From Candidatus Omnitrophota bacterium (GTDB taxonomy: Bacteria; Omnitrophota; Gorgyraeia; Gygaellales; Profunditerraquicolaceae), in the NCBI GenBank assembly GCA_041650835.1, contig JBAZKL010000004.1, positions 166,900 through 230,899 of the forward strand: a stretch of 64,000 nucleotides of DNA, read 5' to 3'. This document shows, one piece after another, positions 15,788-34,100 of this stretch. The notes under the pieces are model-generated. The model searched no databases. It was not told the origin of the DNA and was given only the letters and a program-made list of their open reading frames with translations. The translations under genes were made by a program, and so were the position numbers. Within the stretch, counting starts at the first letter, position 1; each line of letters begins with the position of its first letter.

Positions 15788-15815
15788 AGAGCTCCTTTAA
15801 TTATAAATGTTAAAC

Positions 15816-15945
15816 AAAAACAGTATCAGGACTCGGCAACTATCTAAAATTATTGGACTTGTGAATTAATTCCACGCCATGCCGATTTTATTTGTAATTT
15901 ACTTATTTACAACAAGTTGCTGAGTTCTGACATTAGTTATTTTTC
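15816..15945 (+). repeat. family A ~130-bp element with 13-bp terminal inverted repeats (copy 1, slightly diverged)
   Basis: aaaaacagtatcaggactc ... gagttctgacatt; same internal ttgccgattttattcgtaatttatttattt core as the other copies. Confidence 0.8.
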
Positions 15946-15949
15946 CTAA

Positions 15950-16065
15950 ACAAAAAACCCGAGCTCTTGGCCCGGGTTTAAATTTTGCTTTTTTATAAAA
16001 AATGGCACAGCCTTTGCATGATCCTCCCACTTAATAGATACCAGCATTATATCCTTACATTGCAA
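15950..16065 (+). promoter_or_regulatory. composite element D copy 2: terminator hairpin plus sigma-54 promoter (16003..16018)
   Basis: aacccgagctcttggcccgggttt hairpin; TGGCACagcctTTGCA. Confidence 0.6.
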
Positions 16066-16202
16066 GTAAATCAAGTATAAAACGAAGCTAAAGTATTATC
16101 ATAAGGGAGGTTTTAGGTCTAGTTTAAACTTTCAGAACCAGGTAATTTTAGAGTCTAAAGGCTAAATATCAAAGGAAGATTAAATTATAAAGGCCTAAGT
16201 TT

Positions 16203-16335
16203 AAAAAAAACAGTGTCAGAACTCGATAACTATCTAAAATTATTGGACTTGTGAATTAATTCCGCGTCTTGCCGATTTTATTCGTAACTTATTTATTTAC
16301 AATAAGTTGCTGAGTTCTAACACTAATTATTTTTC
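16203..16335 (+). repeat. family A element copy 2
   Basis: aaaaaaaacAGTGTCAGAACTCga ... GAGTTCTaACACTaatt. Confidence 0.85.
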
Positions 16336-16394
16336 TTGTCCCGGAATTCCCTGACCAATTACGGCCGGTTTTCTAAACCGCGACCCCGGGATTG

Positions 16395-16634
16395 TCAATA
16401 AATGATCGAGCCTTTCTTTATCTGGTCTTTGCGGATTTCGTATTCTTCTTTGGTAATTCTGCCCGCGCTGTAATCCGCATCCAGCTTATCCATCTGGCTT
16501 TTCGCGCTTATTACATCCGCCGCCCCTACTCCGACAGCCCCGACGGCGGCCCCTCCCCAGAAAGAACCGCATCCGGATAAAACAGTTACCGAAAGAAATA
16601 GAATTACCGCTACAATCACCGTCGTACTTCTCAT
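16395..16634 (-). CDS. lipoprotein with C-terminal SHOCT domain
   Basis: lipobox LSGC; C-terminal GRITKEEYEIRKDQI matches the SHOCT short C-terminal motif. Confidence 0.55.
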   Translation of the reverse strand: MRSTTVIVAVILFLSVTVLSGCGSFWGGAAVGAVGVGAADVISAKSQMDKLDADYSAGRITKEEYEIRKDQIKKGSIIY

Positions 16635-16657
16635 GCCTCCACCTCCTTTTACCTCTG

Positions 16658-17002
16658 TTAGAATATAGCCTCGATTACGCCCGCGACCAGCTTAAAAGGA
16701 AACGCCAGCACCTGCCCTATTAAGTGCAGCGTTGTGCCTAAGATGCCCGCTGGTTCACTTTTACTCCGTTCCTCCCTTACCTCTGTGCGCTTCTCTACTT
16801 TTGTAGCTCCGGTATCTTGCGCCTTCGCGGAACTTTCGCCGCCCACGAAGTTGCCTTGATTGCCTTGCTCCGCAGAATCTCCGGCGGTTGTACGCGTCGT
16901 AACCGTTTCTGACTTAACCGTACTTGAGCCGGCTGTGCATCCCGGGAATACAGACACAGCAAATAAACAAACTACCGCCAACAAAAACACTCTTTTATCC
17001 AT
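16658..17002 (-). CDS. low-complexity secreted lipoprotein
   Basis: lipobox FPGC, S/T/G-rich. Confidence 0.45.
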   Translation of the reverse strand: MDKRVFLLAVVCLFAVSVFPGCTAGSSTVKSETVTTRTTAGDSAEQGNQGNFVGGESSAKAQDTGATKVEKRTEVREERSKSEPAGILGTTLHLIGQVLAFPFKLVAGVIEAIF

Positions 17003-17045
17003 ATACCGCCTCCTTATAATAGGATTACCACCAACAACTGCGACG

Positions 17046-17240
17046 TTATTTTTTTATAGTATTCTTTTTTGACAACCTGGATTTTATATATTCGTCCACT
17101 TCCTCTTTCGCGATCCTGTAGCCGTCACGGTACCCTTCCTTATAGGCCCATAACGTTTTGTTATGGATCAGGCGACTAACAAATCCTTCATTTACTCTTA
17201 AAACTTTAGCGGCTTCTTTTGCAAGGAGAATGCTATTCAT
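17046..17240 (-). CDS. excisionase-family helix-turn-helix DNA-binding protein
   Basis: MNSILLAKEAAKVLRVNEGFVSRLIHNKTLWAYK resembles the excisionase-family DNA-binding domain; start moved to the second Met. Confidence 0.55.
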   Translation of the reverse strand: MNSILLAKEAAKVLRVNEGFVSRLIHNKTLWAYKEGYRDGYRIAKEEVDEYIKSRLSKKNTIKK

Positions 17241-17435
17241 CGTCAAAACCCTTTTGAGGGGTACCTGCATGATAATTTAATTAACTTTAAATTATTTTAT
17301 TGTATTCTAATTTTGTCCGCGTATTCTGTAAATGGCTTGTTTCTGGTTTCTTTTGACTTTTTACCACTAAGCATTCCCAGGGCGCCGCCAAATAAAAAAT
17401 CCCCGGCGGGCCGTTTCCGTCGGGGATAAATAATG

Positions 17436-17566
17436 AAAAAAACAGTGTCAGAATTCGAAAACTATCTAAAATTATTGGATTTGTCTATTAATTCCGAACC
17501 TTGTCGATTTTATTCGTAATTTATTTATTTACAGTAAGTTGTTAAGTTCTGACACTAATTATTCTA
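17436..17566 (+). repeat. family A element copy 3 (abuts the stop of the flavodoxin-like gene)
   Basis: aaaaaaacAGTGTCAGAAtTCga ... aAGTTCTGACACTaatt. Confidence 0.85.
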
Positions 17567-18220
17567 CAGCCAGCCTTTTTCAACCCAATATTTGTATTCT
17601 TCCTGCCAATCGTCTTTTCTGAGCTTAATAATACGAGCAAAGTGCTGCTTCCCCTGCTCGATGATTTGCATCTGATCAGGATAGAGTTTTTTCTCTTTCA
17701 TATCAGAGGCAAGCTTCTTGCCTAATTTGAAAGCCTCGGCTTTCGTATCCTCGCCAAACTGCCGGAGAGCAGAAACGCCTCCGGAATATTGAGCTGCGCA
17801 CGTATGACCGTAAAACGCTATATAATCCAGGACTTCTTTATTCTGGCCGCTACCGGAAGACACGACTCCTGCCACATATTTATTAAACAGTCGTTTACAA
17901 TGAATAAAATGCGCCGATCGGTCAAACAAGGCCTTCATCGATGCAGTCACCTGGTTTATGTAGTTAGGCGAAGCAAAAACTATCCCGTCGGCATTCAACA
18001 TTTTTTTAAGAATGCCTTGCACATCATCTTTGAGCGAGCAGCGTAAGAGATTCTTATGGCAGGCCTCACAGTGTTTACAAAATAACACTTTAAAATCATC
18101 CAGATGCAGCGTTTCGCAAATAACCCCCTCTTCCCTTAAACCTCGTAAAACTTCACCGGCTAAAAGGAATGTGCTGCTTTTTTGCTTATGCGGGCTAGAA
18201 GATATAAGTAGAACATTCAT
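17564..18220 (-). CDS. flavodoxin-like NAD(P)H-dependent FMN reductase / iron-sulfur flavoprotein family
   Basis: MNVLLISSSPHK N-terminus, flavodoxin-like fold pattern, compact Cys cluster CKHCEACHKN. Confidence 0.65.
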   Translation of the reverse strand: MNVLLISSSPHKQKSSTFLLAGEVLRGLREEGVICETLHLDDFKVLFCKHCEACHKNLLRCSLKDDVQGILKKMLNADGIVFASPNYINQVTASMKALFDRSAHFIHCKRLFNKYVAGVVSSGSGQNKEVLDYIAFYGHTCAAQYSGGVSALRQFGEDTKAEAFKLGKKLASDMKEKKLYPDQMQIIEQGKQHFARIIKLRKDDWQEEYKYWVEKGWL

Positions 18221-18251: not shown

Positions 18252-18352
18252 AAAGTAAACAGTGTCAGAACTCGACAACTATCTAAAACTATTGGACTTG
18301 TGTATTAATTCCATGCCTTGCCGATTTTATCCGTAACTTATTTATTTACACT
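18252..18352 (+). repeat. family A element copy 4 (right arm truncated at the trmO stop codon)
   Basis: aaacAGTGTCAGAACTCgacaactatctaaaactattggacttgtg...tatttatttacac. Confidence 0.8.
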
Positions 18353-18819
18353 TATTCCCTACCTTGAGGCTTATCACGCAACTTTTTTGTCTCTGTCCAC
18401 CCGTTATTCGCATTAGCAAAATAATCGAACCTTGGAATATACGGTTTAATGTCAATTAACGGTGTGCTATCAAGAATATCTATTCCACTCACTTCCAGAA
18501 TATTTTTATTTCTTTTTTCCAGTTTCACGATGGAAATTCCTATCTTATTTGGCCGGCAAGGATGACGAGACGCAAAAACCCCATGAGGCGTATCATCGAG
18601 AAAGGTTGGTCCGGATAATCGTATTTTTTCTGCCTTGTCGAATATGTAGAATAATATAATATGCGAGAATGTCTCTATTGTTTCTAATGCTTCCTCGTAT
18701 TCTAGAAACACTTCAACTTGCCCTTTTCCTTCAGGCTTAACAGATCCTTGAATGGGACACTCTTCTTTTGATCTATATGGAGAATGAATAACCCCAATTT
18801 GTTTTATTTCGATCTTCAT
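18352..18819 (-). CDS. trmO: tRNA (t6A37) methyltransferase TrmO / TsaA-like (YaeB family)
   Basis: IGVIHSPY...CPIQG...GVFASRHPCRPNKIG...IDILDSTPLIDIKPY are hallmark TsaA/YaeB motifs. Confidence 0.8.
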   Translation of the reverse strand: MKIEIKQIGVIHSPYRSKEECPIQGSVKPEGKGQVEVFLEYEEALETIETFSHIILFYIFDKAEKIRLSGPTFLDDTPHGVFASRHPCRPNKIGISIVKLEKRNKNILEVSGIDILDSTPLIDIKPYIPRFDYFANANNGWTETKKLRDKPQGRE

Positions 18820-18840
18820 TATTTTTCTACTCAGAAATTC

Positions 18841-18910
18841 AGCGACTTGCCGATTTTATTCCTAATTTCTTTGTTTAGAGTGAGTTATTGAGTTATGACA
18901 CCAATTATTT
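18841..18910 (+). repeat. family A element, right half only (copy 5)
   Basis: cgacttgccgattttattcctaatttctttgtttagagtgagttattgagttatgacaccaatt. Confidence 0.7.
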
Positions 18911-19140
18911 CGCAAGAAACAGACATAACCGTTTATTTTGCTCATCCTCGTTCTCCATGGGAGCGAGGTACAAATGAAAACACCAATGCTTTAATACGCC
19001 AGTATTTCCCCAAAACTACTGATTTTTCAAAAATCTCGAAAAATAGACTTAAAGAGGTACAGGACGAATTAAACGATCGTCCGCGCAAAACTCTTGGATG
19101 GTATACACCTCACGAAAAATTTACTGAACTGTTGCGTTAG
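18895..19140 (+). pseudogene. IS30-family transposase C-terminal fragment with right inverted repeat (gttgcgttagcaac at about 19130..19150)
   Basis: 81 aa nearly identical to the C-terminus of the intact IS30 transposase at 29671..30666 (ITVYFAHP.SPWERGTNENTN...DRPRKTLGW.TPHE.F.ELLR). Confidence 0.85.
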
Positions 19141-19342
19141 CAACTTGAATCTATCTAACACTAATTATTCCCCGCAACAGTTTTCCACCTATTTCAGGCG
19201 TGACAGTTGGCGGGATGTTTGGTTTATCGCTAAAATTGTTTTTCCATGCCATTCCTTACCTTTTCTTTCTATCTCATCGCTTTTTGCAATTCATAATTCT
19301 TTTTTGTTGTTCTCAAAAGAACATCACCCCTTTTACTAATCA

Positions 19343-22015
19343 TTACGGTTCCAGCTGCTTTTTGCGTTGCTTTCTTGTTTGATCACGACGACCAATAAGC
19401 TGCCTTGAAAAGTCCCTCAAGGAGCTTATATCAGCGAGCACTTCATCAGGTGCAGGACGATCACAATGCAAAGCCTTGGATTTGTCATGACCTGTCATCC
19501 AAGTACTAGCCTTAGATATATGAAGATCAACGCAATGAATATCAGAATCTTCAATAGCCACTCCATTGAGTCTGAGGGTCTGCACGCTGTTTCTGTATCG
19601 ACAAACTACCTTATCGAACAAATCATCCTCAATACAAGATTCCCAAGCTTCACGCAATAATCCGTAAACATAAGCCGCTTCTTTGTTGTACTCTACCATA
19701 TCTTGCTGATAAAAAGATTTAATCTTATTAACCAAATCTTCCAGGTATTGCGCCCGCTGTCCAACCTTCATGGCATGCCAAGGTACACTATTAATTGTAA
19801 TGCCCGCTGACTTTCCGTCACGGCGCAAAGTATGTACGGTGATACTAACTGGCGTACCGGCCTTGGCAAGCGCCATTCCGGCATCCTCCAATTCCATCAG
19901 GAAAGCTATGTTATGAGTAAATATAATGACCTGTCGTTTAAGCCCCTCTTTCGCGAGCCGTTCAGCAATCTTTCCAGTGAATATATGATCGAGCGATGAA
20001 ACTGGATCATCCAACACGATCGCGTTAACATGTGGGACAAGTTGAAGCTCAGCCAGAAAACCAGCAATTGCGATAACTCGTGCCTCACCTTCACTGAGAA
20101 TCTGAGAGATGCGTACCCGGCCTGATATATTAACGCCTTCCAACAAAATCTCGTGTGTAGTCTCCCCTACATCTCCACAAGGCTTAACCGATATAGACAA
20201 ACGATTCGCACCTAACGCAATAAGTTCCTTCTTAAAAGCACTTATCAACTCCGGAGTTAAGTTCTTCTTAATCACCACTGTGCCTTGCCGTGTAATTTCA
20301 TAAGTACTAAGGGTATCAGCCGCTCGCCGCAAATCGGCATTACGCCGAATCTTAGCAACAAGCGCGTAAATATCGACTTTCCTAGCGTTGAGCGCCTTCC
20401 GCGATTTAAGTTCTGTTATGCTGGCGATAAGCTTCTTATATTCCTCAGGCTTAGCCGCATTCGTAATTTCAGTAGCCTTTTGGGTTAATGTTTTGGCAAC
20501 CGATCGTAATGCTGCTTCTACAGATGCTGGCCATGGTGGCAATAATTTCGACCTTTGCGGATCTTCACCTTCTTTGAGTAAAACGAGTGCTGCAGATTTT
20601 CGCACGGCAATCGCTGTGTGATAGGTTCGCAAATCACTTGCCATCGGGACACCCAAACTACTAAGCTCATCACAAATCGAGTCAAGTGTTGCGGCAGTCA
20701 AAGGAGTCACAGCCTCTATCTTTTCCCTCAGCAACTTCAGCGCATTGCGCTTTGTAACTAACACAGTGTTTGTAGCATCTTCCATAAACTTCTTAAAACG
20801 GGCAAAACGGGCAACAGCCTCTTCACCTAGTGGTTGCTGGCAAAAAACACAGACCGCATCATCTGTTTTCGGAAAGGCCTGACCGGGGTAAGCTATCTCC
20901 TCAGAGTATTTCTTTGCTGCCTTATAGAGGATCTCCCATTGATCGGTGGAAGCAACACCTGGTAGCGTTTCGAACGTCTGCCGTTCAGCCACGGCAGCCG
21001 CACGTGCAAGCTGCGCAGCATTCACCTCTAATATAGCGTTCTGGATACCGTCATTCGTCAAATCAACGCACGCAGCTATGAGCTTTGTCACCGCACTTGC
21101 AGCATCGTTAATTCGCCCTTTAATTTTTTCGAGTCGGGCTACCTCTTGAGTTGCTTTCGTGGAATCTGATGTCCTCGCGAGCTCTTCTTGAGCAATCAAT
21201 TGTAACTCATCTTGCGGAGTCCAATTCGTCGCAGCTTGAATAACCTCTTCTTTGGTAGTCTCTAACAAAGACTCGAGAAATTTAGCTGCTGCGGTACCCG
21301 CCGCAATAGCTGAATCCTGAATCGGCATGATAGCCATTATCTCCGTTTCCACGTCTCCCCTAACTCTTTGGACGATCTCCGCCAGCTTCTGAAACACATC
21401 GCAACCATAGGGCAGATAGTTAATCTGATTTCGATCATCAGTAATGATTCGAGCGCAGCGTCCGTCAAATACTGTGATATTGGTCAAAACAGGGTCGACA
21501 GAAACACCTTGAGTCCAAGCAACATCCCTTGACTTATTATCCTGTTTAATCTTTATTATGGCGGTTGGCGCACCAGATGGTGCCTTAACGAAGACATTAG
21601 AAAGGATACGCTCATCCTTATCGCGGGCTTGGCACGCCAGTTTCAAGATTCGGGAATAACCAGACTTACCAGCGCCATTGTCACCATACACCACTGTAAC
21701 ACCACTCTCAGCGAAAGGCTGTGACGCGCCAGCCTTGATGATGTTGACATTTCTAACGTCATCAATTGATAGTAGTTTAACAGCAACTGTTGTTGTGGGA
21801 ACACCCGAGAAGTTACCCGCAACCGGGAGAATAGGCTTGAGTTTTTCGGGAAACGCTGCAATTTTTAAATCTGCTTTGGCCAAAGCCAATATCTCAGAAT
21901 AATCTTGAGCATTGAGCGGCTGGTCACCCTTAGTCAACAGACGACGAACAACGTCTCCTTGCCACGCAGGTAAAGAACTGGCCCATACAATAATATCGTC
22001 AATAGTAGCCATCAA
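19343..22015 (-). CDS. Rad50/SbcC/RecN-like ABC ATPase with long coiled-coil insert and ~75-aa N-terminal extension
   Basis: Walker A VVYGDNGAGKSGYSRIL, about 500 aa coiled coil, C-terminal signature/Walker B/H-loop (SEGEARVIAIA...IVLDDPVSSLD...IIFTHN); 890 aa. Confidence 0.8.
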   Translation of the reverse strand: MMATIDDIIVWASSLPAWQGDVVRRLLTKGDQPLNAQDYSEILALAKADLKIAAFPEKLKPILPVAGNFSGVPTTTVAVKLLSIDDVRNVNIIKAGASQPFAESGVTVVYGDNGAGKSGYSRILKLACQARDKDERILSNVFVKAPSGAPTAIIKIKQDNKSRDVAWTQGVSVDPVLTNITVFDGRCARIITDDRNQINYLPYGCDVFQKLAEIVQRVRGDVETEIMAIMPIQDSAIAAGTAAAKFLESLLETTKEEVIQAATNWTPQDELQLIAQEELARTSDSTKATQEVARLEKIKGRINDAASAVTKLIAACVDLTNDGIQNAILEVNAAQLARAAAVAERQTFETLPGVASTDQWEILYKAAKKYSEEIAYPGQAFPKTDDAVCVFCQQPLGEEAVARFARFKKFMEDATNTVLVTKRNALKLLREKIEAVTPLTAATLDSICDELSSLGVPMASDLRTYHTAIAVRKSAALVLLKEGEDPQRSKLLPPWPASVEAALRSVAKTLTQKATEITNAAKPEEYKKLIASITELKSRKALNARKVDIYALVAKIRRNADLRRAADTLSTYEITRQGTVVIKKNLTPELISAFKKELIALGANRLSISVKPCGDVGETTHEILLEGVNISGRVRISQILSEGEARVIAIAGFLAELQLVPHVNAIVLDDPVSSLDHIFTGKIAERLAKEGLKRQVIIFTHNIAFLMELEDAGMALAKAGTPVSITVHTLRRDGKSAGITINSVPWHAMKVGQRAQYLEDLVNKIKSFYQQDMVEYNKEAAYVYGLLREAWESCIEDDLFDKVVCRYRNSVQTLRLNGVAIEDSDIHCVDLHISKASTWMTGHDKSKALHCDRPAPDEVLADISSLRDFSRQLIGRRDQTRKQRKKQLEP

Positions 22016-23580: not shown

Positions 23581-23618
23581 AAAAACCTCCTTAAAAATCC
23601 CTTAAACTCATAAAATTT

Positions 23619-24162: not shown

Positions 24163-25710
24163 TTAATAGTTTTTATTTTCGTCTTTATCTTTTAAATCTA
24201 AAGTTTTTCTGGCTTCTTTTACATCAATTTTAGCCTTGTGACCATGCTTCTCCAATAGATGTAACAGATTATTACCATTTAGTAATGTTAAAGGCTTATC
24301 TTGTGCAAACTTATATGCATCTGGACCATAATCGGTAGTTGTAACCAAAATTCCTTTCATAGCGCCTTCGTTCATTACAGTACCATATAAGTCTCGTACA
24401 GCAGATACCCCTACAATGTTTGTATATCTTTTAGCTTGTATAACAATTTTGCCTCCACGAACTGGATCTGGGTCAAAAGCTACTGCATCAACCCCTTCAT
24501 CTCTACTCGCCCTTGTAATTTTGACTTCGCCACCACTGGCTGCAAATTCCTTTTCAAATATTTCTCTAATGAGATTTTCAAAATCTTGCCAATCCATTGC
24601 TGCGATATTTGATTTTTCATCTACATTATCTACCACAGCATAGGGAGAGACAAACCTTTTATCCTCTCGGTTAATTTGCATAATAGGAGCTATAGCGGCA
24701 AGCCCGTGAAGTTTACTACTACCTATTCCTTTTAACTTTTTAAAACAAGTTTTTGGATCTACATTTTCTAAGTTAATTGCGAGAAAATCATCCCGAACAG
24801 CTTGAACCGACAAAATACATGCTACTGCTTCCTTGCCAGTTCCCTTGTCGATAAATCTTACATAACCATTAAATATTACGGAGGTGATCGTCCCCATGCT
24901 ATCATTTTTATATAGCTGGTAAATTGTTAATAAAGTAAGTTGGTATAATAAATCATCGTACAATTCATTAAAAGAACTGCCGGAAATATGCGATTCTTTA
25001 AACTCTGCTCTCGTGTCGTTATATTTAACTTCCTTTAGTGTGGGGATGTTTTCTTTTGATGGCAAAAAATAGTCTATAAGTAATATTCCCGACTCTGGAT
25101 TAAAATCAATTTGAAATTCTTGAGGAAATGTTTCCGGATAAAAAGATTGGCATTTTGATAGAAACATTTCGCAGTAATCTACAATTGCGTCTTTTTGTTT
25201 ATTGAAATAGTCTCCTTTTCGCTTTATGATTTCTTGGTTTTTTTCTTCTCTATTTTTAAAAAAATCTTCCCCTTCTTTTTCCCATTTCAAAACATCATCA
25301 TCATACTGTGTTAACATCTTTGAATTCTTCTCGGTTATCGATGAGCATGCTCTTTCCCATTCTAAATGTGCTTTTTGGAAATTATTCTTCATTTCTTCAA
25401 TTTCTTTCTGCTTTTCTTCAGGAAAAAGTATACCAAATAATGTACCTACCTTTGGCTTAAAAGATGGGTCTATCTCATGCGGCTCTTTCGGCAATTTTAA
25501 TGGTTTGGGCGAGAGAGGTTTTCTTTTTGAGTATTCTGATTTATCTAATAAATCCTCCCAAATAATGGTTGGAACTGTTTTTATAGATTCTTTTAAAATA
25601 TTTTTAATCCTACTTAGCTTTTCTTCTGCCTCTTTTGTCTTTACAGCTGCTAAGTCTTTTTTGTTCGACGGCAATAGTTTATAGATAGATTCTTTATCAA
25701 TAATAATCAT
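24163..25710 (-). CDS. Mrr-like restriction endonuclease catalytic domain protein with uncharacterised ~370-aa N-terminal region
   Basis: C-terminal DEGVDAVAF...KIVIQAKRY...GILVTTTDYGPDA matches the Mrr_cat (PD-(D/E)xK) pattern; N-terminal part lysine/glutamate-rich without a recognisable motif. Confidence 0.7.
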   Translation of the reverse strand: MIIIDKESIYKLLPSNKKDLAAVKTKEAEEKLSRIKNILKESIKTVPTIIWEDLLDKSEYSKRKPLSPKPLKLPKEPHEIDPSFKPKVGTLFGILFPEEKQKEIEEMKNNFQKAHLEWERACSSITEKNSKMLTQYDDDVLKWEKEGEDFFKNREEKNQEIIKRKGDYFNKQKDAIVDYCEMFLSKCQSFYPETFPQEFQIDFNPESGILLIDYFLPSKENIPTLKEVKYNDTRAEFKESHISGSSFNELYDDLLYQLTLLTIYQLYKNDSMGTITSVIFNGYVRFIDKGTGKEAVACILSVQAVRDDFLAINLENVDPKTCFKKLKGIGSSKLHGLAAIAPIMQINREDKRFVSPYAVVDNVDEKSNIAAMDWQDFENLIREIFEKEFAASGGEVKITRASRDEGVDAVAFDPDPVRGGKIVIQAKRYTNIVGVSAVRDLYGTVMNEGAMKGILVTTTDYGPDAYKFAQDKPLTLLNGNNLLHLLEKHGHKAKIDVKEARKTLDLKDKDENKNY

Positions 25711-25859: not shown

Positions 25860-25885
25860 AATATCGTTTTTGTCATAATTTCCAT

Positions 25886-26356
25886 TTATCCGTTCAAGTC
25901 GGGAACAGTATACTCGATAAGTCTATCCTCAAGATTTCTTCTCTCCACATCCGAGAGATTACTGGTCTGGCAAAACCATAATTTTATTCTTTTGCGTTTG
26001 TAATGATTAAGAACAAATTTGTTTATTTTGCAGTTAGTAGATTGACCCCTTACAAAACAATTACGAGGACTTATTAGCCCGTAACCACTATTTATACGAT
26101 TATACAAATCCTGGCATTCTCCAACATAGCGGATTTTGTTATTTAGTGTAAAAAAATAGAGTCCACTTCTCCCACTCCACTTCGGGAGAATCTTGAATCC
26201 ACAAAATCCACCTTTCCCATATCTGTGTAAAGCATACCCTTTCTTGTTATCATATCGGCTTTGCGGATAACTAATGATTACGGTACCATTCTTACTGCGC
26301 ATTAACTCTATCTTACAAACCTCGAGAAAAACAAAACCTAAAATCTTCTTAATCAT
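25886..26356 (-). CDS. GIY-YIG nuclease-domain protein
   Basis: GLYFFTLNNKIRYVGECQDLYNRIN (GIY...YVG...R...N) and downstream conserved Glu (RRNLEDRLIE). Confidence 0.65.
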   Translation of the reverse strand: MIKKILGFVFLEVCKIELMRSKNGTVIISYPQSRYDNKKGYALHRYGKGGFCGFKILPKWSGRSGLYFFTLNNKIRYVGECQDLYNRINSGYGLISPRNCFVRGQSTNCKINKFVLNHYKRKRIKLWFCQTSNLSDVERRNLEDRLIEYTVPDLNG

Positions 26357-26419
26357 TTCTTAAGTAATATTCCAAAGTTCTTTTATTCTATTTACTATAT
26401 GCTGCCATTTTTTTGAATA

Positions 26420-26515
26420 GCAAGACGTTTTATTCAACATTATGATTCTCAACGCGTTACAAAACAATTCATTAATCTTATCTGTCTTCAGTATTTGTTA
26501 TGTAACTAAAAAACG
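26420..26515 (+). repeat. family C element copy 2 (right end diverged)
   Basis: caagacgttttATTCAACat...ttacaaaacaatt... Confidence 0.75.
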
Positions 26516-26524
26516 AATATAGGA

Positions 26525-26650
26525 AAAAACAGTATCTGAACTCGATGACTATCTAAAATTATTGGACTTATGAATTAATTCCGCACCTTGCCGATTTTAT
26601 TCCTAATTTATTTGATTCCAGTGAGTTATTGAGTTCTGACACCAATTATC
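26525..26650 (+). repeat. family A element copy 6
   Basis: aaaaaacagtatctgaactcgatgac ... GAGTTCTGACACcaatt. Confidence 0.85.
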
Positions 26651-26707
26651 TAATTCTAAAGAGATAAACCATCTTACATCGGCACGTATTGGCCAATACT
26701 TAAAACC

Positions 26708-29389
26708 TCAACTTCCGATCAAACGCTTTAGTCTCTTAGCCGCATCTCTTGTTTCTTGCGCAAATTGATGTTTTGCTAAAAAAGCATCATCAACAAACCC
26801 AAGTGACTTCGTTATAAAGTCAGTACCGTACTTAAACCAATTGGGCTTCTCTTTAAAATAAGCCTCTACCGCCGGCTTGGCTTTTTCGATAACCCCATCT
26901 ATATCTTTTAGTTTCGAATATTTAGCAGTATCTATATCATTCAAAATCTTTATATTTAGTTCTTCAGAAACAGGTTTCTCTGAAAATTTCCACTCGGTAT
27001 ATGCTTTTAATGTTTCCCGATTTATAGCTTGATTAAGAAAAATATCCTTTTCTGAATCGCTAATTATTTCTTTATCTCGTCTTTTAATCTCCTCAATAAC
27101 CTTCTGCAAGTTTCTAAATGATTCGTAAATTGGAATATCAATGAAACCTTTAATTTTTCTATCACGTTTATTTTTCTGAACAAATTCTAAGTTATATTTT
27201 GTACCATTAGTATTCAAATTTATTATTAAATAATTTGCGGAATTTTCATTTACCAGGTTTTTATGATTTTCGTAATACTTTTCAGACATATCTTTTATTA
27301 CTAGGATTTGTCGGCTATATTTGGGAATTTTACGGTAGAAACAAAGATGGGGTATTTTACTATTTATAACATCTTCTCTTATCGATACCATAGTTGAGCC
27401 AAAGAGATTTGGATCAGGAGGAAAGCTTGCAAGCAAAAGATTAGTTAGCTGAACATAATTCTTAAAAAATCGCTCCATTATAATAATAATTTGGTTTTTG
27501 AATTGTTCTATATAAGCAATGATCTTCTTTGTTTGATTCTCTAATACTTCCCTGGGAATATGTTGGGGTATATTTTTTTGTAATTTCTCTAGATATTTTT
27601 GATTGCTTTGATAAATAGTTAGCACATCCATATCGCAATATTGTTGTATGTCATTATTATGTACTTTCGTTTCATCATATCCCTCTTCTGGTTTTTCGTC
27701 TTTTACAAGAATTCTTATATCGTCAACCTCATTTACATATAAAGAAAACTTCTCTAGGCTCTCTAAGAAATTATTTTCATAATCTAGCAGTACTTGCGGA
27801 GTAGCTGGAACGACCATTTTTGATTGTGTCCAGGCATATGCGTAAAACGCAATATTCTTGCCCTCAATTGTTTTTACAATCTCGCCTTTTAATAAAATTA
27901 CGCCTAATCTTAATAAATATTCTATTAAATTTTTCTGAGCTAAATATATTCTTAATTGTAGATTATCTTCACGAGTAGGCGGATCTTTACTTAAATGTAA
28001 TTCTTGAAAAAAGGGAATATCAATAAATTTATAGAGCCCGGTTAATAATAGATTATTTTGGTACCAGCAAGAAGGAGCCCAATATTTATTTAAATCAAAT
28101 ATTTGCCCAAGTGCTTTCTGAATATTTGCATGAAAAAGCTCTGTTTCTTCAAAGGACTCAATCTGTAAAACCGGCCTATCTTCCTTATCATAATCACTTA
28201 TGTAATCTCTAATCCTAAAATGCAGTTCAAAGAAATCTGATTTCGCTTGGTAACAAAGAAGATTCCTGAAATCTTGATATATTTGCTTATCGATAAATTT
28301 ATCCTTCGATTCGTCAATTATTTCATCAACATATGCTTCTAAATCGTCAAAATTAGGACGACTAATAAATATTTTGTCATTAAAGAATGTGTAAGCTATT
28401 TCTCTCTCTTCTTTTGATTTTTCAACAACATCATAAATATCCTTCCCAGCTATAAAAACAAAGAGCCCAGAAGATAGCGTAAATAAATTCTTGAAGGTTT
28501 TTATAATATCTGTTATCTTGACTCTCTCGGTTTCTTTAATCTTATCCATTTCATCTATAACAAAAATTATTTTGGAAGATTCTTTCGATAATGAAATCTC
28601 ATCCAAGAGGGCATAAAGATCATATTCTAGGTTACTAATACTTTTGTCAGTTATATATAATTCTTCAACAGAACTGCTCTCGCTTGCTTTTTTACTTTTT
28701 GTTATACTCTTTAATATTTTGTATGATAGCGTCTTTGGTAAAAGAAAGGACAAAGAACCTAATAAAATATTTAAAACTAGATTCTCTTTAGTCGACAAAT
28801 AGAAAAAGCTCATACCAACAATTATCCCTAAAGAGCTAAGGAAATTTCTTATTTGTTCAGAATCAACGCTATATTTTCCTTCTATTTCTTGCTGATCATT
28901 TTCTTCCTGTTCTGTTTCCTTTTTCAATTTAATTTCTTCTTTAATTTCCGATTTTTCAGAAATTGCTTTTTGATACAGCTTACCTAATTTTCTCTGTGAA
29001 TCATCATCTAGCTTGCTTCTCGCGGCAGTATATAATCTTCTTATTAAATTAATAATTATCTTTTCTTCTAGTCTCTCTGGACTTATTTCTAGAACGTCTT
29101 TACCTTCTGCTAAACTTTCTTCAATAAGCAGCTGAGATGCATTAATCAAAACAGGAATAATCTTTTTATTCTTTGCCGTAGCTTTATATAAAGCTTCATA
29201 AACCAGAGCTGTCTTACCAACACCTCGCTCACCACTGACCAAAAGACAACCCTTTTCTCTTCTTAAGAACCAATTTTCAATTTTATTTCTTTCCTCTTTT
29301 CTTCCAACAAAATGTCCCTGTGGTTTTTCATAATGAGGAAAGTAATCCCAGTCTTTTTTAAGTGCCAATTTTAATTCTTCATTTACCAT
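26708..29389 (-). CDS. KAP-family P-loop NTPase (Walker A, TM-helix insertion, Walker B) with large C-terminal region
   Basis: FVGRKEE...GERGVGKT Walker A; two hydrophobic helices (IIVGMSFFYLS...LLGSLSFLL) inserted before Walker B KIIFVIDEMD; 893 aa, extremely A+T-rich gene. Confidence 0.7.
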   Translation of the reverse strand: MVNEELKLALKKDWDYFPHYEKPQGHFVGRKEERNKIENWFLRREKGCLLVSGERGVGKTALVYEALYKATAKNKKIIPVLINASQLLIEESLAEGKDVLEISPERLEEKIIINLIRRLYTAARSKLDDDSQRKLGKLYQKAISEKSEIKEEIKLKKETEQEENDQQEIEGKYSVDSEQIRNFLSSLGIIVGMSFFYLSTKENLVLNILLGSLSFLLPKTLSYKILKSITKSKKASESSSVEELYITDKSISNLEYDLYALLDEISLSKESSKIIFVIDEMDKIKETERVKITDIIKTFKNLFTLSSGLFVFIAGKDIYDVVEKSKEEREIAYTFFNDKIFISRPNFDDLEAYVDEIIDESKDKFIDKQIYQDFRNLLCYQAKSDFFELHFRIRDYISDYDKEDRPVLQIESFEETELFHANIQKALGQIFDLNKYWAPSCWYQNNLLLTGLYKFIDIPFFQELHLSKDPPTREDNLQLRIYLAQKNLIEYLLRLGVILLKGEIVKTIEGKNIAFYAYAWTQSKMVVPATPQVLLDYENNFLESLEKFSLYVNEVDDIRILVKDEKPEEGYDETKVHNNDIQQYCDMDVLTIYQSNQKYLEKLQKNIPQHIPREVLENQTKKIIAYIEQFKNQIIIIMERFFKNYVQLTNLLLASFPPDPNLFGSTMVSIREDVINSKIPHLCFYRKIPKYSRQILVIKDMSEKYYENHKNLVNENSANYLIINLNTNGTKYNLEFVQKNKRDRKIKGFIDIPIYESFRNLQKVIEEIKRRDKEIISDSEKDIFLNQAINRETLKAYTEWKFSEKPVSEELNIKILNDIDTAKYSKLKDIDGVIEKAKPAVEAYFKEKPNWFKYGTDFITKSLGFVDDAFLAKHQFAQETRDAAKRLKRLIGS

Positions 29390-29431
29390 GTTTTCACCTC
29401 TTTATTGATTACAATGATTCTGATCTGAATA

Positions 29432-29558
29432 AAAAAACAGTGTCAGAACTCGACAACTATCTAAAACTATTGGACTTGTGAATTAATTCCGTGACTTGCT
29501 GATTTTATTCGTAACTTATTTATTTACTGTAAGTTATTGAGTTCTGACATTAATTATT
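29432..29558 (+). repeat. family A element copy 7
   Basis: aaaaaaacAGTGTCAGAACTCgac ... GAGTTCTGACAtTaatt. Confidence 0.85.
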
Positions 29559-29644
29559 CAATTGCAATCTTATCAATTCAGACAGTTTACTCAATTCACG
29601 CATATCCGCTAAATGAAGCGACTGATAGTAATTCTCCTTATAGA

Positions 29645-30716
29645 ATTTCATAGACTGTAGATTCAAATTACTAACGCAACAACTCGCTGAATCTTTCGTG
29701 AGGCGTATGCCAGCCAAGAGTTTTTCTTGGCCGGTCGTTTAATTCATCTTGAACTTCTTTTAATCTGGTCCTTGAGATCTTTGAAAAATCTGTTCCTTTA
29801 GGGAAATACTGCCTTAATAAGGAATTTGTGTTTTCATTAGTTCCCCGCTCCCAGGGGGAATGCGGGTGAGCAAAATAAACGGTTATTTTTGTTTCTTTTG
29901 TAAATAGCTTATGCTGACACATCTCACCACCCTGGTCGTAGGTAAGCGTTCTTTTCAATCCTGGGGGTAAACTGCGGAATTCTTCGCCAAAAGATCTTCT
30001 GATAGTTGAGGCGTCCTGGTTCCGTAGTTTTACTAAGAAGGCCATGCGTGTCGTACGCTCAACGAGGGTTCCAATGGCTGAGGCATTACGTCGCCCGATT
30101 ATTAAATCGCCTTCCCAGTGTCCAGGGATAGTGCGGTCGGCTACTTCTTGCGGGCGTTCTTCGATGCTAAAGTAATCCTGTATGCTGCCTGGTTTCCCTC
30201 GTCTGCCATCTTTTTTGCGGCGGTATTTATGGTTTCTTCTAAGATAAGATATAAGCCTGCGCTTGAAGGTGCCGCGAGGTAAAACATAGATATGGGAGTA
30301 AATTGTTTCGTGAGAGACGCGCATAGACATATCATTAGGATACAATACAATGAGTCTCTTGGCAATCTGTTCAGGTGACCAGTTTTTTGTTAAATAAGAA
30401 AGAACGAGTTTTCTTAACAGCGCGTTAGTGGCAAGTTTACGATTCTTGCGTATCTTGTGACGCGTTTTGATCGACTGCTGCTGAACGAAAATAGCACGGT
30501 AATATTTTAATTCTACTACCCCTGACTGACGTATTTCTCTGGATATACTACTGGGCGACCTGTTGAGAATACCGGCTATTGTTCGCAAACTGGATCCTAA
30601 TGCAATTTGACGGCTGATCTCTTCGCGCTCAAAGAGCGAGATTCGGTGATATTTTATCATTCGCAACTCCTTTCATCCGCTATTATAGCAGATTAAAGTG
30701 TTGCGTTAGTTGCTTG
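29645..30716 (-). mobile_element. intact IS30-family insertion sequence (about 1.07 kb)
   Basis: terminal inverted repeats ...ttactaacgcaacaac (left) and gttgcgttagttgc (right) flank a full-length transposase gene. Confidence 0.8.
29671..30666 (-). CDS. IS30-family transposase (DDE)
   Basis: N-terminal HTH, HWEGDLIIG, ...YFAHPHSPWERGTNENTNSLLRQ... IS30 signature; 331 aa. Confidence 0.9.
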   Translation of the reverse strand: MRMIKYHRISLFEREEISRQIALGSSLRTIAGILNRSPSSISREIRQSGVVELKYYRAIFVQQQSIKTRHKIRKNRKLATNALLRKLVLSYLTKNWSPEQIAKRLIVLYPNDMSMRVSHETIYSHIYVLPRGTFKRRLISYLRRNHKYRRKKDGRRGKPGSIQDYFSIEERPQEVADRTIPGHWEGDLIIGRRNASAIGTLVERTTRMAFLVKLRNQDASTIRRSFGEEFRSLPPGLKRTLTYDQGGEMCQHKLFTKETKITVYFAHPHSPWERGTNENTNSLLRQYFPKGTDFSKISRTRLKEVQDELNDRPRKTLGWHTPHERFSELLR

Positions 30717-30726
30717 AGTCTAAGGA

Positions 30727-30837
30727 CCGCTGTATCCAACCTACTATAATCCTTACACTTACAAAACAATTAGATAGGTTCAAGCAAAAGAATTGTTTTG
30801 CAACTTAAAGAAGCATTATCGGTTACGTACAGCGTCC
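30727..30837 (+). repeat. family B element copy 2
   Basis: ccgctgtATCCAACctactataatccttacacttacaaaacaatt...aattgttttgcaactt...ggttacgtacagcgtcc. Confidence 0.8.
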
Positions 30838-30865
30838 TTAGGATTTCCATGACTCCTTAAACCTA

Positions 30866-31783
30866 TTAATGTATGCCAGGAAGCTGAATAACCTTTTGCG
30901 ATTGTATAAAGGCAGCTCCCATATGGTTTTCGATAATTTTACAAGCAGTGGTACTGGATAAAGTATGAATAAAAGTATGATGTACACTCAATGCAGCATT
31001 TTGAATGTCTTGGTTGTCTTCTAACATTGATATGATCAAACCGATCTCTTTACACCTCTCAGGGGGCAGATGTCTTGAATGAGATAATGTTTCATCATGG
31101 CTTCCTATTACACTGACAATTTTGTTAATAGAATCAGTTTTTTGAGGTTCGGGTAAATTCGCAAACATTCCTGTGCCCAACCATTTCTTAACAAGATACT
31201 CTGACCAAGTAATTGCCTTTTGACATTCGCCAATAAATGCTGGAGGATATTTAGCAATTATTGGTTGCCAAACTGGTATTTTTGCAGAATCCAGTTTAAT
31301 CTCCTCATAAGCTTTCGAGAATTCTTCAATCACACCGTGACATGGTATTCCATTAAATTGAGGATCTATTGGACCCAAGCTGGAATGTTTCCCCATTAGT
31401 ACTTCTTTACAAGCACATGCTATCATTGTACCACCAGACATTGAAAGCTGCGGAACGATCGCTCTTATATTAGTCCCAAATAAACTCCTCAAGTAATCAA
31501 CAAGAGATTCTGTAGCAGCAGTTTCACCTCCCGGAGTATGCAAAATCAAATCTAATCCTTTCGACCAATCCATACCTTTTAAGGCTGACATAAATCCATT
31601 TTTATCATTGTCATTTATAGAAACCAGTTGGGGATCAGCCTTTTTTTGCAGCCATCCTGAATAATAAGCAATTACATTACGTCCTGTTAAATCATATAAT
31701 TTTTTTAAATAGCTGCGCCGAACAATATCTTGCGTACTACCAAGTTGGTGTATTTCTTCTCCTAATTCTTTCCAATTACCCAT
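30866..31783 (-). CDS. SDH-family (S49/ClpP-fold) serine protease
   Basis: LILHTPGGE and SMSGGTMIACAC motifs typical of the ClpP/SppA fold (serine dehydrogenase proteinase family); 8-bp overlap with upstream small ORF. Confidence 0.65.
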   Translation of the reverse strand: MGNWKELGEEIHQLGSTQDIVRRSYLKKLYDLTGRNVIAYYSGWLQKKADPQLVSINDNDKNGFMSALKGMDWSKGLDLILHTPGGETAATESLVDYLRSLFGTNIRAIVPQLSMSGGTMIACACKEVLMGKHSSLGPIDPQFNGIPCHGVIEEFSKAYEEIKLDSAKIPVWQPIIAKYPPAFIGECQKAITWSEYLVKKWLGTGMFANLPEPQKTDSINKIVSVIGSHDETLSHSRHLPPERCKEIGLIISMLEDNQDIQNAALSVHHTFIHTLSSTTACKIIENHMGAAFIQSQKVIQLPGIH

Positions 31784-32009
31784 TGTTTATCTCCAGCCCT
31801 ACAGTATCTGTAGTTATCATAATATTCCAAGTACTCCCTGATCTTTCCATGGTTAAATCATTCCTCAATCCTTCAAAAGGATTTGGAATCTTCAAAAGTT
31901 CGTATAATTCAATAATCTCTTTATCAGTGAATTTTTTCATAATAAGACAACCTAAAGAAAATATTTGCAGCGGGGCTATAGCCTTCCCAAACCAGCCAAA
32001 TAATTCCAT
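31776..32009 (-). CDS. small protein translationally coupled to the SDH protease
   Basis: 77-aa ORF overlapping the protease start by 8 bp. Confidence 0.45.
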   Translation of the reverse strand: MELFGWFGKAIAPLQIFSLGCLIMKKFTDKEIIELYELLKIPNPFEGLRNDLTMERSGSTWNIMITTDTVGLEINNG

Positions 32010-32038
32010 TCGTCATTTTTGAACCTTTTCTACCCCCG

Positions 32039-32170
32039 CAAAAAAAACAGTGTCAGAACTCGATGACTATCTAGAATTATTGGACTTGTGAATTAATTCC
32101 GCGTCTTGCCGATTTTATTCGTAATTTATTTATTTACAGTGAGTTATTGAATTCTAACGCTAATTATTTA
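32039..32170 (+). repeat. family A element copy 8 (abuts cyclase stop codon)
   Basis: aaaaaaaacAGTGTCAGAACTCgatgac ... GAaTTCTaACgCTaatt. Confidence 0.85.
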
Positions 32171-33124
32171 TCGAAACCTCACCTTATGAACTTTATAAGG
32201 TTTATCGTCTTCACCTTTATACTGCCAATCATCTCTTAGTTTTATCTCGTTGCAGCCTTCGCGCCACGTTGTATGTAAATTCCTCTCGGTTATATCTCCC
32301 AGAAGGATATCTCCTGGATTACCTAAGCTCTGAATTTTCGCGGCTAAACTAACAACTGAACCAATTATGTCCTTGTGCCTTTTTGTGTTAGGGCTACCGA
32401 TAGCTATTATACAGGCATCTCCAGAATCTAAGCCTATTCTAATATTGATGGTAGGGTAACCATTTTCCTCAAGCATTTGATTTACTCCACTATATATCAG
32501 CCTTCTTACTGTTAAAGAGCAGTCTAGAGCCAAATCATTTTTTATTATAAAGCTTGGCTCAGGGAAATATGCTATCAGCCCATCTCCGGTATATTTTAAA
32601 ACATGCCCATGGAACTTAGGAACAATTTCGCTCATTTCATATAAAATGACAGATATTAATTTCGCATATTTCTGGAGATCCAGGCTTTTTGATAGCTTTG
32701 TTGAACCAGCTAAATCTACACACATAATAACGAATCCCAAGCTATCAGTGGCTAATGACTCCAAGAACTCTTCTGACTTATCCTTAAAAACATAAGGTTC
32801 TTCTTCCGATTTTAATCTTTCACGAATCAACGGTATTCTCTCTTGAATATATTTCTCTGCATCACCGATTTCTTGCCGTTGCAGATACATTGGCTTTCCA
32901 GCTAATTGCTTTGCAAAATCAGCAAATACGTTTTCAGGAAAAATAATTTTATCAAATTTATCATATAAATACCGCTTCCCATTTATGTCTTTCCATTCAT
33001 ACCTTCTGGGGTCTGGGAGTAATCTCACTGTAAATATCTTTTTATCATCATCCACAGAAATAACTTCTTGAACAAAGTCCATCCTAAAAGCTTTGGTCTT
33101 ATCAGACACGCTTGAATTCTCCAT
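32168..33124 (-). CDS. class III nucleotidyl (adenylate/guanylate-type) cyclase with ~130-aa N-terminal extension
   Basis: cyclase-homology-domain motifs VIMCVDLAGSTKL, KYTGDGLIAYF, IRIGLDSGDACI, GSVVSLAAKIQS. Confidence 0.75.
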   Translation of the reverse strand: MENSSVSDKTKAFRMDFVQEVISVDDDKKIFTVRLLPDPRRYEWKDINGKRYLYDKFDKIIFPENVFADFAKQLAGKPMYLQRQEIGDAEKYIQERIPLIRERLKSEEEPYVFKDKSEEFLESLATDSLGFVIMCVDLAGSTKLSKSLDLQKYAKLISVILYEMSEIVPKFHGHVLKYTGDGLIAYFPEPSFIIKNDLALDCSLTVRRLIYSGVNQMLEENGYPTINIRIGLDSGDACIIAIGSPNTKRHKDIIGSVVSLAAKIQSLGNPGDILLGDITERNLHTTWREGCNEIKLRDDWQYKGEDDKPYKVHKVRFR

Positions 33125-33144
33125 ATCTTTTATTTAACTATCTT

Positions 33145-33609
33145 TTATTCGCCATAGTAACTTATTAGCCATATAGCTAAGCCAGCCAAAACTAATTTTC
33201 CTATAAATTTTTTATTTTCGACCTGCACCTTCAGTATATCTAAATAGTTATCCGCATTTATATATGCCTGCTTGGGGTTATTCTTATCAAACTCTATATA
33301 TTCTTTTCCTACCAATACTCCTTTTAAGGTAACCCCTTTCTCAACAATCGGTACAACAGGAATTTTGAAAGCATTCGCAGTAGCAATCTCTTGATTAACT
33401 ATGTCGGAGCGCGATCCGTCAATTGTCATTATAGCTAACACACAACTACTATTTCTTATATTTGCCTGTATCTTACCCCACAAATCAGTACCGGGTTGCG
33501 CATCAAGAACAGCCAAGTATACCTCTATTCCTTTCAGCCTTAATATATTGGCAAATTCATCAACAATCTGCATATCTTTTGTGCTGTGGCTAATAAAAAC
33601 ATTCATCAT
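33145..33609 (-). CDS. TIR-domain protein with C-terminal transmembrane helix
   Basis: MMNVFISHSTKD (FISHS TIR hallmark), conserved Glu in VNQEIATA, C-terminal LVLAGLAIWLISYY hydrophobic helix; 154 aa. Confidence 0.75.
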   Translation of the reverse strand: MMNVFISHSTKDMQIVDEFANILRLKGIEVYLAVLDAQPGTDLWGKIQANIRNSSCVLAIMTIDGSRSDIVNQEIATANAFKIPVVPIVEKGVTLKGVLVGKEYIEFDKNNPKQAYINADNYLDILKVQVENKKFIGKLVLAGLAIWLISYYGE

Positions 33610-33654
33610 TCTTTATTGCCCCCGATCTAAATAAAACCCCTAAGCTAGAAAGAA

Positions 33655-33852
33655 CTAAAAAGGATTCTTTCCTCCTATTTCGCAGAAGCTACACCTTGTC
33701 TGGATGCAATCGTTCTCTTTATTGAGACATTTTTTAACTCTCCAACCAAGCGTCTTAGGGTTACCCATTTCCTTTATACTTTCCACTACCACATTAATAT
33801 CCCTCTGCCTAAGATTACAGTACTTAGATTCAATCCTTGTAGGATTGCTCAT
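33655..33852 (-). CDS. small cysteine-rich protein (first gene of the TIR-cyclase unit)
   Basis: 65 aa with CxxxxC...CxxC pattern; 45 bp upstream of the TIR gene on the same strand. Confidence 0.4.
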   Translation of the reverse strand: MSNPTRIESKYCNLRQRDINVVVESIKEMGNPKTLGWRVKKCLNKENDCIQTRCSFCEIGGKNPF

Positions 33853-33984
33853 TTACACCTCCTCGTTCTGGAAATCCATCATACTGAACATATCAAAGAA
33901 TTGGTATGCCGTCTGCAAACCTGTAATTTGGTAAATAGTAATAATAGGAAACGTTTCTATCTTTCTCATACAAAAGCCACCAGA

Positions 33985-34100
33985 AAATACAAAAACCCGA
34001 GCTCTTGGCCCGGGTAAGTGATAGAATTTCCTATAAAGAATGGAACAGCCTTTGCATGGTCCCCCCACTTAATTGACACTAATATTATATCCTTACGTTG
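33985..34100 (+). promoter_or_regulatory. composite element D copy 3: terminator hairpin plus sigma-54-like promoter (34041..34056, TGGAAC-N5-TTGCA)
   Basis: aacccgagctcttggcccgggt hairpin then TGGaACagcctTTGCA and a conserved cccacttaattgaca...atattatatcctta tail. Confidence 0.55.

Follow-up and report, generated by a model that had tools for sequence, protein, structure and literature searches.

The uncultured Omnitrophota are often ultra-small bacteria, and little has, to our knowledge, been described of their mobile DNA or their defences against phage. In Neisseria, the "minimal mobile elements" are cassettes exchanged by homologous recombination between conserved flanks, and chromosomal integrons typically carry defence genes and small open reading frames (ORFs) of unknown function. 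The attC sites of integrons are defined by RYYYAAC/GTTRRRY terminal boxes, extrahelical bases, an unpaired central spacer and a variable terminal structure (PMC5027507). We analysed a stretch of 64,000 nt from a Candidatus Omnitrophota bacterium (contig JBAZKL010000004.1, positions 166,900 to 230,899; hereafter the window), in which an initial annotation had proposed an A+T-rich island at 15.8-34.1 kb, organised either like an integron cassette array or as a shuffling hotspot mediated by miniature inverted-repeat transposable elements (MITEs). Here we show that this island comprises about 18 kb of A+T-rich DNA of foreign origin, predicted to encode mostly anti-phage defence, plus a few small metabolic or unknown genes and copies of IS30. 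It occupies a variable hotspot immediately downstream of tRNA-Ser(GGA), where cargo turns over between species, and a new family of palindromic repeats, which we call R133, stands between its units. R133 is not a canonical attC site, and the locus is not a canonical integron.

The A+T-richness claimed for the island was borne out by a sliding-window analysis of base composition and by codon usage, with the block deviating strongly in both. The G+C content is 38.2% across 15800-34100 and 34.7% across 23600-34100, against 48.0% in the flanks, where the lowest 1-kb window is at least 39.8%. G+C at third codon positions (GC3) is 0.25-0.36 for the genes at 23.6-33.6 kb, except IS30 (0.43), and 0.31-0.51 for those at 16.4-23.6 kb, compared with 0.52-0.64 for core genes. 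Every credible gene in the window lies on the minus strand, and GC skew is negative throughout. The upstream border of the variable region is tRNA-Ser(GGA) (35047..35130, minus strand; ARAGORN and Rfam), and at its other side lies a zf_Tbcl_2 gene (15308..15787, minus strand), which in the sister genomes is the first gene after this tRNA. No duplicate of the tRNA-Ser(GGA) 3' end occurs elsewhere in the window, and the idea that the island ends, on its far side, in an att repeat derived from the tRNA was rejected, as no match was found when up to 3 mismatches in 25 nt were allowed.

Comparison of RecN (35893-37557, minus strand) and of nucleotide sequence identified two other Omnitrophota species as the closest relatives of the window: CAZPNW010000026 (L002; RecN 95% identical, ~88% nucleotide identity to the window) and JBAZTA010000001 (L003; RecN 93% identical). 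A JGI contig (L022) is identical to L002 across a shared 4.3 kb and extends it, and a further locus (L028) supplied ~8.7 kb past the left end of the window, bringing the sampled total of this genome to ~73 kb. In both L002 and L003 the zf_Tbcl_2 gene lies within 0.2-1 kb after tRNA-Ser(GGA), whereas in the window the two are 19 kb apart; the sister protein is 78% identical to the product of 15308-15787. The segment at 15.8-34.1 kb is therefore an insertion relative to the two sisters, and the island coordinates first assigned fit its limits well.

The related genomes carry different cargo at this same locus. L002/L022 has its own block of 32-37% G+C with SIR2 and HerA, HEPN, GIY-YIG and unknown genes, in which every one of four R133 copies comes after a single gene, and a second repeat family, D13, is represented once. 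In L003 the locus holds a methyltransferase, two flavodoxins and other genes, with R133 represented by one 35-nt 3' fragment. The flavodoxin gene of the window is 93% identical in L003, where homology ends 14 nt upstream of the start codon and 2 nt past the stop codon, and no R133 flanks it. The esterase and 443-aa genes share 92-95% identity with their counterparts in L022, where their order is reversed with breakpoints within ~20 nt of the gene ends, a permutation that bears out the "shuffling hotspot" part of the original proposal. The repeat upstream of the esterase is a full R133 in L022 (4646-4794) and a decayed one in the window (12640-12712). Contigs of the same population in ENA and Logan were 100% identical to the window, and an exact-protein look-up for strain variants turned up only the identical arrangement.

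R133 is an inverted-repeat family of ~133 nt for which pattern searches gave 9-10 matches against 0 expected by chance. An nhmmer profile search together with direct reading found 11 copies in the window, six full-length and five partial or remnant, all on the minus strand. The full copies lie at 32036..32175 (nhmmer, 6.6e-43; overlapping the cyclase stop codon), 29429..29565 (39 nt ahead of the STAND gene start), 17433..17571 (beginning at the flavodoxin stop codon) and 15812..15947 (24 nt ahead of the zf_Tbcl_2 gene start), with two more from the profile search at 26519..26653 and 16201..16336. Among the others, 18835..18914 retains only the 5' arm and centre and lies 15 nt ahead of the TrmO start, 18252..18352 has the 3' end of the TrmO ORF in place of its 5' arm, 13077..13123 consists of the centre only, 12640..12712 is decayed by an internal deletion ahead of the esterase gene, and 19154..19169, identified by direct reading, is a 16-nt 5' remnant (AATAATTAGTGTTAGA) cut by an IS30 remnant. 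The family is confined to 12.6-32.2 kb and is absent from the rest of the window and from the 8.7 kb beyond its left end. In five of the 11 window copies the 5' end overlaps the upstream stop codon or is no more than 3 nt from it, and in seven the 3' end stands 15-39 nt ahead of the next start codon. Counting the four copies in L002/L022 and the fragment in L003, all 16 are on the gene-sense strand. Divergence among copies is 8-19% within this genome and 12-22% with respect to those of L002/L022, and the truncated ones (five of 11 in the window, plus the L003 fragment) break off at differing internal positions.

The inverted repeat that had been reported at nearly every unit boundary is thus real, but it occupies only some of the junctions, others holding D13 or a further repeat, element X. 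It also oversteps the 15.8-34.1-kb limits given for it, as the partial copies at 12640-12712 and 13077-13123 lie outside them, in DNA of normal G+C content. Rfam contains no match to R133, whether at its gathering threshold or at E<=1. A first, exact pattern found nothing in GTDB species genomes or JGI metagenomes and was too strict, as the L002 copies fail it; a looser one, run on 241 million JGI metagenome records, hit one contig only, L022, at 3 places. Two scans of viral contigs gave no match to the R133 pattern.

The R133 sense consensus reads ATAATT-AGTGTCAGAACTCAATAACT...TTACGAATAAAATCGGCAAGGCGCGGAATTAATTCACAAGTCCAATAATTTTAGAT-AGTTATCGAGTTCTGACACT-G-T(7-8). Its 20-nt arms, AGTGTCAGAACTCAATAACT and AGTTATCGAGTTCTGACACT, pair at 19 of 20 positions, and pairing runs without indels over 26 columns as a 13-bp stem, an A.C mismatch that is invariant in 9 aligned copies, and a 6-bp stem. 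Inner pairs extend the fold into a rod-like structure of 32 pairs with an A+T-rich centre, and the central part of the repeat is conserved, not variable. Compensatory double changes occur at two pairs, and the outer stem is present in nearly all single-sequence folds, whether computed as RNA or DNA. On the sense strand a run of 7-8 T residues immediately follows the 3' arm.

Between the repeats, the units encode several recognisable defence genes, all on the minus strand; PADLOC recognises PycC with TIR, mREase_IV and PDC-S06, the last being a PADLOC candidate system. A predicted TIR-domain effector of the Pycsar/Thoeris type (33145..33609; Pfam TIR_2 1.2e-16, PADLOC TIR models), matching TIR_2 and CAP12-PCTIR_TIR, ends 21 nt upstream of a PycC-like nucleotide cyclase gene (32168..33124; Pfam Guanylate_cyc, PADLOC PycC 4e-20), and this pairing of a PycC-type cyclase with an adjacent effector suggests a Pycsar-like system. 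These are followed by a 77-aa ORF with an SDH-type ClpP-like protease gene (30866..32009, the protease alone 30866-31783; Pfam SDH_protease 3e-18) and by the gene for an 893-aa STAND/AAA_16 NTPase (26708..29389; Pfam; GC3 0.245). The latter had been labelled a KAP NTPase, for which we found no basis, its Pfam matches being of the AAA_16/STAND type only. The GIY-YIG assignment of the 156-aa ORF at 25886-26356 has no Pfam match at E<=0.01 behind it, only a likeness at the level of a motif (GLYFF...YVGE). The remaining gene calls held: an Mrr-type type IV restriction endonuclease (24163..25710; Pfam Mrr_cat 5.6e-29, PADLOC mREase_IV 1e-55), RmuC (22048-23580; Pfam RmuC 1.5e-76) beside the PDC-S06 AAA_13 ATPase (19343-22015; Pfam AAA_13, PADLOC PDC-S06 1.7e-187), both of intermediate G+C content, a TrmO-like gene (18352..18819; Pfam TrmO_N 5.7e-38) and an FMN_red flavodoxin-family gene (17564..18220; Pfam), as well as the SDH protease and the TIR-cyclase pair. 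At 16395..17270 lie an HTH_17 (excisionase-like) ORF by Pfam and small ORFs of 114 and 79 aa. The HTH_17 ORF itself (17046-17270, 74 aa) is excisionase/AlpA-like, with no integrase nearby. Within RmuC, at ~22732-22867, both MEGAHIT contigs of ERZ27247363 terminate with an overlap of ~135 nt, which hints at a strain-level branch of the assembly graph.

Homologues of Mrr at 55-67% identity are scattered patchily over Bacillota, Gammaproteobacteria, Chlorobium, Desulfobaccales and other groups, and flavodoxin homologues 70-87% identical occur in several phyla; both distributions fit horizontal transfer. The flavodoxin homologues of other phyla were tried as a source of context and set aside, as their neighbourhoods are unrelated and lack R133. 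With several recognised systems clustered, content that varies among relatives and atypical composition, the locus is a defence island, and the deviant composition, the PADLOC systems, the scattered Mrr homologues and the different cargo of the sister genomes together uphold the suggestion that it was assembled horizontally.

Other repeats fill the junctions between Mrr and the 156-aa ORF, between that ORF and R133, and between the SDH protease and IS30. D13 is an inverted-repeat family with two minus-strand copies in the window (26416-26517 and 25732-25880; 90% identity across 102 nt), which bracket the 156-aa ORF, and one further copy at L022 3885-4016. The copy at 25732-25880, directly before the Mrr start codon, bears attC-like boxes, GCATAAC-AAATG-CTGAAGAC ... 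GTCTTGC-TATTT-GTTAAGT; the other D13 copies diverge precisely at that 3' point, and GTT is absent from two of four. Element X occurs at 23940-24060 and 30728-30850. Inserted in the latter copy is an intact IS30-family element (29658..30722, minus strand; HTH_38 and rve) with terminal inverted repeats of ~25 nt, TAGACTCAAGCAACTAACGCAACAC and TAGATTCAAATTACTAACGCAACA. A decayed, inverted copy at 18914..19153 (plus strand) keeps the C-terminal part of the transposase and the right inverted repeat and is 80% identical to 29658-29897, so the one intact and one decayed IS30 that had been reported are both present. The IS30 transposase is the only recombinase that Pfam detected among the large ORFs of the window.

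We favour, with moderate confidence, the explanation that the locus is an integrase-less hotspot defence island in which R133 is a lineage-specific ERIC/MITE-like palindrome, serving as terminator and as portable homology. Transcribed at the close of each unit, R133 would fold on the mRNA strand into an extended hairpin with a U-run behind it, and so would terminate transcripts or stabilise their 3' ends, insulating neighbouring units from each other. The same ~130 bp, shared between units in one orientation, could provide portable homology, at which RecA-type or illegitimate recombination may add, delete and permute units in the way seen between the sister genomes. Several observations weigh against this explanation. 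The R133 hairpin is only moderately stabler than shuffled sequence (z -5 to +1), and a distinct, canonical GC-rich terminator stands after the copy at 17433-17571. Shuffling does not require R133, since the repeat is missing from several of the permuted junctions, the esterase/443-aa junction of L022 among them. Classical MITE, ERIC and REP families are dispersed and found in both orientations, whereas 16 of 16 R133 copies are co-oriented and those of this genome are clustered within 20 kb of the ~73 kb sampled. As the genes all lie on one strand, the orientation of the repeats relative to genes is inseparable from their orientation relative to replication.

The 20-nt terminal inverted repeats with one mismatch, the lack of coding capacity and the length of ~133 bp are those of a MITE, and R133 may instead be a MITE that is, or was until recently, mobilised in trans by a transposase, for example the IS30-family enzyme of the island, with a preference for gene 3' ends or A+T-rich DNA; the mosaic would then be a by-product of MITE and IS activity. 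In favour of this, one R133 arm is interrupted by an IS30 copy, with a second IS30 adjoining the region; the flavodoxin gene, flanked by R133 on either side in the window, lacks both flanking copies in L003; and three L002 copies have lineage-specific substitutions in common. By eye the arms look like IS30 ends (TAGA-CTCAAGCAACT), but when local alignments with the IS30 inverted repeats were compared with shuffles, p was above 0.05 in most cases and 0.0035 at best, none surviving correction for 36 tests, and descent from IS30 was rejected. No target-site duplication is recognisable, since the flanks of R133 are themselves conserved (ATAATT on one side, the T-run on the other), and L002, L003 and L022 offer no orthologous pair of filled and empty sites. 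Copies that differ by 8-19% within one genome argue against a recent burst of transposition, and their clustering and single orientation within ~73 kb of this genome also weigh against this reading. The orientation bias could stem from transcription, from replication-strand bias or from inheritance through local recombination, as all genes share one strand. The annotation's phrase "MITE-mediated" thus holds for the architecture of the repeat and not for its movement, for which no legible target duplication, empty-site polymorphism or cognate transposase was found among these loci, and we consider a mobile MITE unlikely. It is more improbable still that R133 has a chiefly regulatory role, as an RNA or DNA element (a portable promoter or a cis-antisense RNA gene, for example) that is maintained by selection and neither mobile nor recombinational. 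All three truncated copies retain the central segment TTAC(G/C)GATAAAATCGGCAAG...GGAATT, a consensus scan found TTGTAA-16-TAAAAT on the sense strand of two copies, and the most invariant bases spell TTGNCG-N17-T-rich on the antisense strand. Not every copy conserves these promoter-like hexamers, which are weak; the region holds 22 promoter-like sites against a shuffle expectation of 15.5 +/- 3.1, a modest excess only, and no Rfam family matches. A promoter within R133 is accordingly not supported.

The layout of the locus, with co-oriented sites at the 3' ends of tightly packed one- or two-gene units, 15-39 nt from the next start, and with content that varies among relatives, resembles that of an integron. 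R133, perhaps together with D13, might thus be an attC-type single-strand site in a non-canonical integron-like array, of the kind termed a cluster of attC sites lacking integron-integrases (CALIN), whose units are mobile cassettes and whose tyrosine recombinase is encoded elsewhere in the genome. The length of 133 nt is within the attC range, the R133 arms contain AAC...GTT triplets (TCAGAAC/GTTCTGA), D13 at 25732-25880 has good RYYYAAC/GTTRRRY-like boxes (GCATAAC...GTTAAGT), the array is found at one locus in two species with different cargo, and defence genes with small unknown ORFs are just what chromosomal integrons tend to hold. The details of the repeat speak otherwise. TCAGAAC/GTTCTGA are the only complementary AAC/GTT boxes in R133, yet they miss three of four degenerate consensus positions and are not terminal: conservation and pairing run 10-12 nt past them on both sides (AGTG/CACT, then ATAATT and the T-run). 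By the published attC features (PMC5027507), the arms are of equal length and have neither bulged bases nor an unpaired 5-nt spacer. Truncation at varied internal points speaks for decay or illegitimate recombination and is not the outcome expected of precise attC x attC exchange, the flavodoxin of L003 and the esterase/443-aa junction of L022 carry no repeat, and the GTT missing from half of the four D13 copies counts against that family as well. A search for an intI-type tyrosine recombinase found none in the 64-kb window, in the 8.7 kb to its left or at the sister loci; Phage_integrase-type domains are absent from the window's large ORFs, from the Pfam list of L028 and from the ORFs downstream of RecN in L002, L003 and L022. 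On these grounds the membership of the locus among integron cassette arrays, as the annotation had suggested, is not supported, and a CALIN-type array seems to us quite unlikely, if not to the same degree as a purely regulatory role for R133. A new integron-like cassette system of Omnitrophota, in which co-oriented palindromic non-attC sites (R133 with or without D13) and a recombinase encoded elsewhere take up and reshuffle single defence genes beside tRNA-Ser(GGA), would extend the idea of the cassette array past IntI/attC if R133 proved to be a recombination site, but we give it little credence.

A further repeat marks the edges of the block. A module combining a promoter, an 8-codon mini-ORF and a terminator lies at its right edge (33986..34153, minus strand), and a second copy, joined to a fragment of the D10 palindrome (15948..16222, minus strand), lies at the left edge of the inserted block; 33986-34153 and 15948-16115 form a direct repeat of 77% identity that brackets the 18-kb low-GC block. 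The segment 15948..16222 is 86% identical to L002 7409-7667, which is located after the zf_Tbcl_2 gene there, not before it. The module, ~110-170 nt long, also occurs at 15169-15290 (minus strand) and at L002 7480-7697. It comprises a sigma-70-like promoter (TTGATT-17-TATAAT in copy 2), a Shine-Dalgarno sequence and a GC-rich hairpin terminator, with the mini-ORF encoding MQRLCHFL, MQTLCQFL or MQRLFHSL; Rfam gave only sub-threshold matches to anti-hemB and Leu_leader. D10 is a 106-nt, AAAGG-rich palindrome, 81% self-complementary, at 39248-39353 with relatives at 35532-35604 and 16150-16222, and is found in core intergenic regions. GTGACnGTCAC-N7-GTGACnGTCAC hairpins between an A-run and a T-run, which look like bidirectional terminators, occur at 34630-34670, 34200-34240 and 9040-9075, and in L003 at 15960-16000 and 16907-16950. 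The presence of the D10 and GTGAC families in core intergenic DNA indicates that repeats of this sort are a general trait here and not specific to an integron. Behind each of the three tRNA-Ser genes (GGA, CGA and TGA) lies a module of 100-300 nt, rich in hairpins and common to all three (34700-35040, 44938-45268 and 51668-52000), which L002 and L003 also have.

Outside the island, a 115-nt direct repeat of 82% identity (9037-9153 and L028 7277-7388, the latter ~4.3 kb left of the window start) brackets histidine kinase/response regulator, carbamoyltransferase, NiFe hydrogenase and hyp genes. The PQ-loop/GDT1 genes lie ~8 kb after tRNA-Ser(GGA) in L003 and ~40 kb away in this genome, so the hydrogenase block may be accessory too. 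The ORF at 2743-4884, hydrogenase small-subunit-like and also bearing a Big_6 domain, contains three tandem 246-nt repeats at 2990-3727 (97% and 71% identity). Two neighbouring ankyrin-repeat proteins are encoded at 48283-50426, the first (48283-49206) with an internal 99-nt tandem duplication at 48809-49006.

Taken together, the comparison with the sister species reveals one tRNA-linked site at which entire defence systems turn over from one species to another. If R133 is a terminator or portable-homology element, as we favour, this would be a clean case of selfish palindromes organising a defence island; whether it has that role or proves to be a recombination site, R133 offers a convenient marker with which to find variable cargo in these genomes.

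Among described systems, the locus resembles integrase-less defence-island hotspots and tRNA-adjacent islands in having unrelated defence systems at one tRNA-side site, deviant composition, IS elements and cargo that differs among close relatives. It differs from them in lacking an integrase and, within the window, a tRNA-derived direct repeat at the far end, in having its units punctuated by a dedicated repeat family, and in its uncultured Omnitrophota host. As in the minimal mobile elements of Neisseria, gene units change places at one fixed position and no recombinase genes are dedicated to the task, but the shared sequence here would be an intergenic repeat instead of conserved flanking genes, and the exchange is putative. 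Sedentary chromosomal integron arrays and CALINs have in common with it co-oriented repeats of ~130 bp after single genes, compact spacing, repeats typical of the species (78-93% identity here) and a cargo of defence genes, small ORFs and unknowns. They are set apart by the lack in R133 of boxes, extrahelical bases and spacer, by conservation beyond the would-be crossover point, by the many truncated copies and the several repeat-free junctions here, and by the failure to find IntI in the regions searched.

The repeat itself is closest in kind to the ERIC/IRU, Correia (NEMIS), RUP and REP/BIME palindromes and to MITEs. With these it shares the form of a non-coding imperfect palindrome of ~100-150 bp with terminal inverted arms and a position in transcribed intergenic DNA near stop codons, and like them it is a plausible terminator, mRNA stabiliser and recombination substrate. 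R133 has no sequence relationship to these families and no Rfam match, although their own presence in Rfam is unconfirmed; it also differs in being clustered in one 20-kb locus in strictly one orientation, and in that neither a target duplication nor a mobilising transposase was found for it. Hotspot defence islands and palindromic intergenic repeats are thus both known kinds; what is new here is the R133 family, which, without the hallmarks of an integron, is co-oriented, confined to one locus and arranged in cassette-like fashion.

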